From contig CAYIDA010000005.1 in the NCBI GenBank assembly GCA_964362205.1, positions 1 to 64,000 of the forward strand: a DNA stretch of 64,000 bases, written 5' to 3'. Positions 12,097 through 12,216 of this stretch are shown in pieces. The translations under genes were made by a program, and so were the position numbers. The notes under the pieces were generated by a model. That model was given only the letters and a program-made list of their open reading frames with translations, made no database searches and was not told the DNA's origin. The stretch comes from an uncultured Gammaproteobacteria bacterium. Its GTDB lineage: Bacteria > Patescibacteriota > Patescibacteriia > UBA11705 > JABHMO01. Every line of letters starts with the position of its first letter. Within the stretch, counting starts at the first letter, position 1.

Positions 12097-12216
12097 GGCG
12101 GTAGGATGTAGGGCGGTAGGGTTGTAGGGTGTAGGTTGCTTGATTGTTTTATATTCTTAAGTTTGTTCTTACGTTCATGCGTTCTTTCGTTCTTTATTTA
12201 AGTGTTTAATGTTTTC

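Follow-up and report, generated by a model that had tools for sequence, protein, structure and literature searches.

The DNA analyzed here, positions 1 to 64,000 of contig CAYIDA010000005.1 (assembly GCA_964362205.1), is called the window below, and all copy counts refer to these 64 kb of genome. In the spacers between its genes lie tandem arrays of short words, or stutters, either single or in inverted pairs, and these arrays are the subject of this report. The window has a composition of about 41% G+C and contains housekeeping genes, nearly all on the + strand, with G exceeding C on that strand over the whole 64 kb. Pfam scans of the window open reading frames (ORFs) identified pyruvate kinase (pyk), DnaE, rfb genes, and a DUF4012 protein. 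ThrRS was assigned from the tRNA-synthetase domains listed on the identical contig L081, and ribosomal protein L9 (rplI) and CTP synthase (pyrG) were assigned from the Pfam listings on L207; L-numbered sequences, here and below, are contigs or loci of related strains, related genomes, and other metagenomes. The one tRNA of the window, tRNA-Gln, was located at 57934-58007 and was also the sole match to Rfam at gathering thresholds. The best matches of DnaE among species-representative genomes were 73-59% identical and came from Candidatus Falkowbacteria, Kuenenbacteria, and other Patescibacteria assemblies. Contigs identical or nearly identical to the window came from Hainich groundwater samples. 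The host of the repeats is a Falkowbacteria/Kuenenbacteria-like Patescibacterium.

Arrays were called by Tandem Repeats Finder (TRF) at a period of at least 5, and spacers of at least 30 nt were counted. TRF arrays covered 11.5% of the noncoding DNA of the window compared to 1.5% of its coding DNA. Their period was 7-9, and the periods of 8 and 9 enclosed 7-nt cores. Arrays amounted to 906 nt in the spacers, whereas dinucleotide-preserving shuffles of the spacers (n = 200) contained 89 ± 47 nt, with a maximum of 242 nt, and length-matched coding segments contained 97 ± 58 nt. When a 50-kb stretch of E. coli K-12 was run through the identical pipeline as a control, arrays made up 0.8% of its noncoding DNA. 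The stutter is real, exceeding the chance level about tenfold. The independent assemblies L081, L209, and L211 carried identical or near-identical array sequences, so the arrays are not assembly artefacts. An earlier note on this DNA, made from the sequence alone, had held that the stutter is not random low-complexity DNA, and the comparison with composition-matched shuffles agrees with this. It had also held that almost every intergenic leader is affected; this was an overstatement, since arrays were present in 16 of 41 spacers, or about 40%. The other spacers were array-free; some had a usual GC-stem terminator and T-run, others unremarkable A/T-rich upstream DNA.

The earlier note overlooked the main structure of the arrays, about half of which are inverted pairs forming long hairpins. 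Inverted doublets of this kind were found at about half of the loci with arrays (elements A, B, D, F, G, H, I, J, M, and Q), with arms of 30-48 nt that were 75-100% complementary and separated by 23-95 nt. Fold z-scores against shuffles were -3.9 to -9.2 for B, D, F, G, H, and I, and folding energies were similar on both strands for all but element E, described below. The order of variant units and the 0-3-nt spacers between them were mirrored in the two arms, as in element G, in which TACAAAT-CG-TACAAAT-GT-TACAAAT was present in both. This mirrored order indicates that the arms are whole copies of each other and not two tracts that stuttered independently. Promoter-like hexamers were present in the loops of A, B, D, G, and I, near the chance level for A/T-rich DNA. 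Identity with intrinsic terminators was ruled out: the stems of the doublet elements are A/T-rich and 30-48 bp long rather than short and GC-rich, and because none is followed by a T-run (a U-tract in RNA), the hairpins are not ordinary terminators, examples of which occur elsewhere in the window (15798, 26608, 31385, and 34669). A clade set of 80 related loci or genomes, with about 20 kb of sequence per locus, was also searched for inverted partners by a 6-mer test. Partners were found for 93 of 248 arrays compared to 55-62 in controls, a modest enrichment by a crude measure.

Pairwise BLAST grouped the elements into five dispersed families with 2-5 members each: A and I; B, C, and F; D and Q; G, H, M, N, and J; and K and O. 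The words, which make up at least five families, are therefore not locus-specific, contrary to the description in the earlier note. The TAATTA family comprises A (236-409; arms 236-290 and 356-409), which lies upstream of the gene at 422 and has 41 Watson-Crick pairs, and I (30755-30891; arms 30755-30799 and 30853-30891); the two were 70-72% identical over 145 nt. The TACTGATT/TACAGAT family has 3 members. Element B (5644-5754; arms 5644-5685 and 5713-5754) has a TATAAT-like hexamer in its loop and a fold z-score of -4.3 on the + strand. Element C (9296-9392, + strand) has direct TACTGATT words around a 15-bp inner hairpin (9320-9336/9345-9360). Element F (18732-18888) lies in the dnaE 5' leader and has arms of TACAGAT/ATCTGTA words at 18732-18766 and 18854-18888 and TACTGATT words at 18805-18820; C and F were 96% identical over 25 nt. 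Element D (10982-11114), of the GGGAT/GAGAT family, has its left array at 10982-11032, beginning at the upstream stop codon, and its right array at 11059-11114, ending 4 nt before the ATG at 11119, with fold z-scores of -6.8 and -6.1. A hit of element D to a plant miRNA-precursor model at Rfam E <= 0.5 was dismissed as chance, and no real family was matched. Element Q (63312-63416; arms 63312-63352 and 63376-63416; GAGAT/GGGAT words) has 31 Watson-Crick pairs and fills a spacer between convergent genes.

The TACAAAT family was the largest. Element G (22465-22601), downstream of dnaE, has arms at 22465-22517 and 22542-22601, of which 48 nt are 88% complementary, and fold z-scores of -5.4 and -9.2. 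Element H (30020-30167) follows directly on the stop codon at 30017-30019 and stops 5 nt short of the ATG at 30172, with an extra 13-nt unit in its left arm and a small GC hairpin in its loop. Element J (36173-36347) has its left arm at 36173-36211, its right arm at 36305-36347, and a CGTTCTT mini-array in its loop (36273-36291). Its left arm forms the last 12 codons and the stop codon of rfbB (35165-36211), such that the C-terminal tail of RfbB, a dTDP-glucose 4,6-dehydratase-like protein, is encoded by the repeat arm (SRLQITNRTNVTN). This tail is 11 residues longer than that of the L006 orthologue, which stops 3 residues past a conserved WY. Element M (42879-42995) has 39-nt arms (42879-42917 and 42957-42995) that are 95% complementary with 34 of 34 Watson-Crick pairs, and its left arm begins on the stop codon of a DUF5663 gene (42579-42881), which is a real gene. 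Element N (50908-50961, - strand) is a lone arm that takes up the entire rplI-pyrG spacer, reaching from the TAA stop codon to a point 3 nt short of the ATG at 50965, and it does not fold by itself (-6.0 kcal/mol, z = 0.3).

Within this family, the 37-38-nt module GGCTACAAATTACAAATCGTACAAATGTTACAAATTAC was 100% identical between the left arm of G (22465-22502) and N (50961-50925, opposite strand), 28 kb apart; the reverse complement of N aligned to the G left arm without mismatch over 37 bases and with 96% identity over 50 nt. The same module was present at 97% identity in the J left arm (36174-36209) and the G right arm (22599-22565), and 28 of 28 bases were found in L086, a relative with 87% identity in the neighboring protein. 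In general, modules of 35-55 nt with the same order of variant units and spacers recurred at distant loci with 96-100% identity, as well as in both arms of a hairpin and in L086. H and M were 74% identical over 144 nt, loop included, and this likeness of the loops suggests copying of whole elements. The loop motif GTTCTTTCGTT was exact in J and present with one mismatch in the opposite orientation in H; M had a related variant in the H-like reverse orientation, unmatched at one mismatch. Among the clade arrays, 27 of 300 had a copy of at least 24 nt and at least 85% identity more than 400 nt away in the same ~20-kb locus, and dispersed copies were found in 8 other clade genomes, which indicates that dispersed families are general in the clade. 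These identities show that whole modules and elements have been copied from locus to locus. The suggestion in the earlier note of a genome-wide mechanism was borne out insofar as the trait is a property of the genome and of the clade, but the recurrence of 35-55-nt modules shows that the arrays are not written afresh for each leader. No common word or tag was identified: units were diverse and A/T-rich, ends of the form GGCTAC...GTAGCC were limited to the TACAAAT family, and the enriched 4-mers of 346 array units did not include GTAG/CTAC.

The remaining arrays were single or unpaired, and they include the examples quoted in the earlier note, which were found where it placed them. Element E (12094-12195, + strand) has a TAGGGYGG array of TAGGGCGG-type words at 12094-12135, starting from the stop codon TAG, and a CGTTCTTT/GTTCTTTC array at 12165-12195. 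The two arrays are not Watson-Crick complementary, and pairing on the + strand needs G:U (17 Watson-Crick plus 18 G:T pairs); the predicted fold was -30.9 kcal/mol on the + strand and -1.6 on the - strand, with a z-score of only -2.6. E is best taken as two adjacent arrays, perhaps with a weak RNA hairpin, and the apparent G:U hairpin may be just a G-rich array beside a U/C-rich array. E showed no differences in strains L212 and L213. The word CGTTCTTTCGTT, the loop motif of the TACAAAT family, was present exactly at 12180 and 36280, as the earlier note had claimed in pointing to words shared by distant loci. Element K (40040-40097, + strand) has AAGCACAAA and AAAATTC words, the latter at 40067-40097, and ends 3 nt before the ATG at 40100. 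It was related in reverse orientation to element O (78% over 55 nt), which lies in the leader of tRNA-Gln and has TTTGAAT words at 57868-57926 on the + strand. Element L (42485-42518, + strand) consists of two copies of the 16-nt unit CAATTAAGCACAGAAA with a 94% match in a divergent spacer, and it matched no family. Element P (58620-58671, + strand) has TACACGA words, found at 58631-58671, and ends 5 nt before the ATG at 58677. An A-rich array of TAAAAATA units (60576-60627, + strand) is followed by an ordinary GC-stem terminator.

In many cases an element took up precisely the space between two genes. D, E, H, M, and N began on or next to the upstream stop codon, and for six genes the right-hand array stopped 3-7 nt short of the following start codon. 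One element (J) overlapped the last 12 codons of a gene and one (Q) lay between convergent genes. The description of the arrays as leaders in the earlier note thus covers only half of what was seen, given the many elements that begin at an upstream stop codon and the placement of J and Q. By spacer class, arrays were present in 37% of co-directional, 34% of divergent, and 19% of convergent spacers. Arrays were not depleted in divergent spacers, so a REP-like confinement (REP, repetitive extragenic palindromic) to transcribed 3' regions was not observed. The idea that the arrays substitute for Shine-Dalgarno sequences was rejected because most window genes lack one regardless: a strong Shine-Dalgarno match was present in 9 of 48 genes and absent from the other 39, array or not, and the sequence immediately 5' of most start codons was A/T-rich. 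Two ORFs in the mechanical list, with starts at 11023 and 58617, were over-extended through stop-free arrays, and their true starts are likely the ATGs at 11119 and 58677. The arrays are accordingly a hazard for automatic start-codon calling.

Change between strains was assessed over about 12 kb in L082 and L214, which were 98.1% and 98.5% identical to the window, respectively. Differences were found at 60 of 1386 four-fold sites (4.3%), at 17 of 1486 other noncoding positions (1.1%), and at none of 286 array positions, the latter being the arrays and arms of H, I, O, and P. The difference between arrays and four-fold sites was significant (P = 1.5e-5). O and P had 0 changes in 111 nt in L214. 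In L082, the arms of H had no changes and its loop had 3, which were three of the four noncoding differences of that strain. There were no array indels relative to L082 or L214; the L082 alignment was gap-free, and L214 had five gap openings, of which the sole noncoding one was in a terminator (58102). These counts contradict a rapid turnover of words in orthologous spacers, which the earlier note had proposed to look for. The sole array length change seen was in L212 (about 99% identical), which was without exactly one 9-nt unit of the D right array (11088-11098), showing that slippage alters arrays by whole units. This deletion, together with a period of 7 being the commonest in noncoding arrays of the clade (135 of 396; coding arrays peaked at 6, 9, and 12), upholds the proposal of the earlier note that replication slippage acts.

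Comparisons at greater distance gave a different picture. In L085 (92% amino acid identity), the arms of I were nearly unchanged and its loop had diverged. At the H site, L085 had TACGAAT words in both arms where the window has TACAAAT, and L086 (87% amino acid identity) had a G-type variant, so three variants exist across the window, L085, and L086. Element I was missing from L086, where only 2 nt separate the stop codon from the next ATG. The dnaE leader was similarly variable. Element F follows directly on a conserved extended -10 box, TGTGGTAAAAT, and stops 7 nt short of the ATG at 18896. The TGTGnTAAAAT extended -10-like box (18710-18722 in the window) was kept in L001, L002, L003, L005, L006, L009, L010, and L014, and is conserved across genera whatever separates it from the dnaE start codon. 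About 9 of 25 relatives had a hairpin or array of unrelated words in this leader (GTCAAAAG, CACGAAT, GGAATTT, and others), and the array-free leaders were 17-35 nt long behind a matching box. Across the 80 related loci the trait was patchy, arrays accounting for 0-19% of noncoding DNA. A metagenome scan for TACAAAT arrays returned mostly unrelated microsatellites; L091, L097, L147, and L164 had a layout of stop codon, hairpin, and start codon. The hairpin of L091 lies upstream of what we take to be dnaK, and that of L097 presumably lies between two ribosomal-protein genes, both judged by translated starts. Taken together, these alignments indicate that the elements are stable in the short term apart from whole-unit slippage, and that whole elements are gained, lost, or replaced in the longer term with both arms changing in concert. 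The strain comparison supports the view that selection retains the elements.

The explanation that we favor, to which we give about an even chance, is that the stutters are a few families of small dispersed extragenic palindromic repeats, similar to REPs and REPINs (REP doublets forming hairpins) or to miniature inverted-repeat transposable elements (MITEs), adjusted by slippage, copied between loci, and kept by selection as hairpins acting in cis. The unit is a module of 35-55 nt with 4-6 copies of a 7-nt core word (e.g., TACAAAT) and 0-3-nt spacers. Modules are single or, about equally often, inverted doublets, which in RNA or in single-stranded DNA could fold into a hairpin whose stem is 30-48 bp long, and they occupy the gaps between genes, the only free DNA of a compact genome. 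Slippage and inverted duplication may have created and lengthened them, and their spread could have been transposition-like, with a transposase in trans, or by recombinational copying, as for REPINs and MITEs. Their retention could be explained if the hairpin acts in cis at cistron boundaries, either by capping the 5' or 3' ends of mRNA or as a processing site; mRNA-end capping and processing-site roles have been proposed for REP elements. This cis function is the weakest step of the explanation. Hairpins in transcripts would fit the positions of the elements, namely the dnaE leader, spacers between probably co-transcribed genes, the L097 spacer, and the site upstream of dnaK in L091.

Several observations weigh against this explanation. 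The arrays did not differ significantly from other noncoding DNA in rate of change (0/286 vs 17/1486, P = 0.09). No transposase, reverse transcriptase, recombinase, or Y1_Tnp domain was found in the 30 window ORFs compared to Pfam, with 18 ORFs unscanned; by the same scan, nothing supports the templated repeat-writing that the earlier note had named as a candidate. Inspection of G, H, M, and N revealed no repeated flank that would represent a target-site duplication, the empty site of L086 being too diverged for exact comparison. The closest relative, L001, has the C-terminus of an IS200-like Y1 transposase (Y1_Tnp, E = 3e-7) at 1-105, about 1 kb upstream of dnaE, but this fragment, the sole IS200-like gene seen, is followed by a GC-rich hairpin and has no flanking arrays. 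Strong conservation of individual copies is not predicted for a purely selfish element, and the sampling of 64 kb means that the true copy numbers lie beyond the window. Not every array has a pairing partner, as the solo arrays K, N, O, and P and the non-complementary pair E show, so hairpin formation is not the whole story. Neither folding of the two strands nor a wobble test gave an RNA-specific signal; in the latter, 125 clade hairpins (all those with at least 20 Watson-Crick pairs, ordinary terminators included) had 87 G:U-type mismatches on the sense strand vs 93 on the antisense strand. Modules were also used in both orientations relative to transcription, as in N compared to the left arms of J and G, and this independence of orientation is easier to reconcile with a DNA-level role or a relic than with a strand-specific RNA. 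The lack of a sense G:U excess, the use of both orientations and of single modules, and the array frequency in divergent spacers together speak against a role at the RNA level alone and keep a DNA-level protein-binding role as a candidate.

Four other explanations were considered. The view of the earlier note was that each leader is made in place by slippage or local repeat-writing and that the leaders are fast-evolving, essentially neutral by-products. The 9-nt unit indel between strains, the great diversity of the A/T-rich words with no motif in common, the patchiness of the trait among relatives, and the dominance of heptamers in noncoding arrays, as in the slippage-prone long simple sequence repeats (SSRs) summarized in PMC4679880, are all compatible with it. 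However, slippage in place would not be expected to produce identical 37-nt modules with an irregular 7/9/9-nt spacer order kept at distant loci and in both arms, nor cores with variable 0-3-nt spacers, and the unchanged arrays beside four-fold sites that differ at 4.3%, with arms kept while loops drift, do not resemble neutral by-products. We consider this view improbable. A somewhat different possibility is that the elements are RNA structures of the host that evolved in place under selection and without mobility, for example as mRNA end protectors, RNase III sites, or cistron insulators, with gene conversion responsible for their likeness. We regard it as unlikely, though several points speak for it: the arms are constrained and the loops free, both arms change together at the H site, none of the hairpins has a U-tract, Q sits where other convergent gene pairs of the window have a terminator, and the positions are transcribed ones (the dnaE leader behind a -10 box, the ribosomal-protein cluster spacer of L097, and spacers from stop to start codon). 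Such an RNA would be expected to show a sense-strand excess of G:U, which was not seen, and it is at odds with one module occurring in both orientations and as unpaired singles, with the J left arm lying within a coding region, and with the likeness of the H and M loops, which suggests whole-element copying.

The arrays could instead act as double-stranded DNA, that is, as multi-site platforms for one or several host proteins such as nucleoid proteins or regulators, in which case a word family would mark co-regulated loci and the arms would bracket promoters. This is rather doubtful in our judgment. Many lineage-specific word families would call for a large set of binding proteins from a very small genome, a 7-9-bp period leaves little room for repeated protein sites, and no candidate binding protein was identified. 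The promoter-like hexamers in the loops of A, B, D, G, and I would suit such platforms, but these hits are near chance for A/T-rich DNA, and F lies downstream of the likely dnaE promoter. In its favor, the arrangement is independent of orientation, the two strands have nearly equal wobble counts, divergent spacers bear arrays about as often as co-directional ones do and convergent spacers less often, the solo arrays O and P are conserved without change in 111 nt, and a specific sequence of 28-37 nt is kept across species. Finally, the inverted arms might be recombination sites of invertible promoter switches (invertons), an idea that takes in the inverted repeats around short segments, some with promoter-like hexamers, and the loop motif of J being oriented opposite to those of H and M. 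We find it very hard to credit: the segments between arms are merely 23-95 nt, orthologous loops never differed in orientation among the strains and relatives compared (L082, L085), and there was no recombinase among the 30 Pfam-scanned ORFs of the window.

The arrays are a conserved type of repeat architecture that is widespread in a little-known phylum and has not been described there, although its closest analogues are well known; no reports of such repeats in Patescibacteria or the candidate phyla radiation were found in the literature. Noncoding DNA of the candidate phyla radiation has hardly been studied, and here, across many lineages, about a tenth of it is made up of a single unusual repeat type. 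Conservation of the repeats is no lower than that of other noncoding DNA and far exceeds that of silent coding sites. In practical terms, they move gene ends (the RfbB tail), mislead start-codon calls, and are possible strain markers. Should the hairpins prove to act on transcripts, they would represent a main signal of gene expression in organisms not yet grown alone. Going further, many Patescibacteria could mark their cistron boundaries with family-specific "stutter palindromes", a separate class of domesticated dispersed repeats read by a dedicated trans-acting factor that punctuate or stabilize transcripts or set translation starts. The factor would be an RNase or a DNA- or RNA-binding protein, in genomes largely without Shine-Dalgarno sequences, and the palindromes, if this is true, would be a bacterial counterpart of punctuation-type mRNA processing. 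We put this forward as a speculation that is unlikely to be right.

Other features of the window were noted. A noncoding element of about 300 nt was present in two copies of opposite orientation 18 kb apart, at 6120-6434 (+ strand, neighboring pyk) and 24500-24796 (- strand, neighboring thrS). The 5' ends of the copies were 81.5% identical over 119 nt, and the copies had in common a 35-nt 3' block, CCAGACCCCGTGAAATGCAA.GTAATCAC; the ends of the element pair with each other, and 8 predicted pairs were altered on both sides between the copies. It had no Rfam match. A GC-rich element of about 200 nt was found at 34887-35070 and 52679-52884 (82% identical), with a partial third copy at 34754-34800. 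Each of the two copies follows a T-run in an otherwise A/T-rich genome, and the consensus fold was -63 kcal/mol with 59 pairs, from two sequences and with no covariation. It had no Rfam match even at E <= 0.5 and is a candidate structured RNA or repeat. A match to the cspA thermoregulator at 54489-54902 was below the Rfam threshold (63 bits vs a gathering score of 78) and covered the leader and coding region of a gene for a 66-residue cold-shock protein. A direct repeat of 62 nt, 85% identical (3801-3862 and 4017-4078), lies upstream of a double-zinc-ribbon gene (4231-4914) and overlaps the mechanical ORFs 3596-4027 (- strand) and 3641-4294 (+ strand); it may be an internal domain duplication, provided that the latter ORF is real. 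An 848-residue protein (13208-15754) has major-vault-protein shoulder and repeat domains and an SPFH/Band 7 domain, and its gene adjoins an NYN-domain gene. Lastly, 44 differences, including small indels, were clustered in 166 nt (49541-49706) relative to L207, a contig otherwise 99.9% identical. This segment lies in the 5' part of an S41 peptidase gene (49194-50456) and could be a recombination tract or a hypervariable segment.

The arrays resemble several known repeat systems without coinciding with any one of them. The REP unit is a GC-rich palindrome of 20-40 nt with a GTAG or CGTC tag, tied to a RAYT (REP-associated tyrosine) transposase (Bertels & Rainey 2011, PMC3116915). Like REPs, bacterial interspersed mosaic elements (BIMEs), and REPINs, the window elements are short extragenic repeats with several families per genome (PMC3116915). 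REPs come singly and, by preference, as inverted doublets that together with their spacer form a hairpin in single-stranded DNA or mRNA, and the window elements resemble them in this; they are, again like REPINs, long-lived, vertically inherited, and located at gene boundaries (PMC3116915). Unlike a REP, the window arm consists of 7-nt-core words in an A/T-rich tandem array and does not fold on its own; no tag is enriched among the array units as a whole, and no RAYT-type Y1_Tnp domain was found in the 30 window ORFs scanned.

Bacterial MITEs such as Correia/NEMIS, RUP, BOX, and the Rickettsia palindromic elements are 100-180 nt long with terminal inverted repeats and a variable interior (Delihas 2011, PMC3184786), and the window doublets, at 100-175 nt with arms at both ends and variable loops, agree with this in size and in their inverted ends. 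Other likenesses to MITEs are the many copies, presence or absence that varies between relatives, and fusion to the end of an ORF, as with J and rfbB; bacterial MITEs are also co-transcribed with neighboring genes (PMC3184786). Insertion polymorphism is likewise shared, element I being in the window and L085 but not in L086, and the dnaE leader existing with and without an element. In contrast to MITEs, the arms are internally periodic, which is undescribed for these MITEs (PMC3184786), and single arms such as N also occur. No target-site duplication was seen at G, H, M, or N, and no parent insertion sequence with matching ends was found in the 64 kb and the partial loci of relatives.

Long SSRs with units of 5-11 nt and the heptamer arrays of cyanobacteria are regular direct repeats (Mrazek 2007, as summarized in PMC4679880). 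Tandem units of about 7 nt, strong enrichment in noncoding DNA, sporadic occurrence across lineages, and a length change that is likely by slippage are features that the window arrays have in common with the long SSRs of that summary. They differ from long SSRs, as outlined there, in having variable-spacer cores in fixed modules of 25-50 nt that are copied between loci, form inverted doublets, and are stable between strains. The TAACTGA repeats of marine Beggiatoaceae, cyanobacteria, and Bacteroidetes are direct repeats of one genome-wide word, with a single indirect repeat (MacGregor 2015, PMC4679880). They share with the window heptamer arrays placed a few nucleotides upstream of the starts of unrelated genes, essential ones included, and spacers without Shine-Dalgarno sequences, and the window family TACTGATT resembles TAACTGA (PMC4679880), being the nearest such word (at 9370, at 18805, and in element B). 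The window arrays are nonetheless not TAACTGA repeats, as they have many other words, dispersed families, and frequent inverted pairs. The elements described here unite simple repeats of the heptamer type with extragenic palindromes of the REP or MITE type, which suggests that long hairpins can be built from short words.

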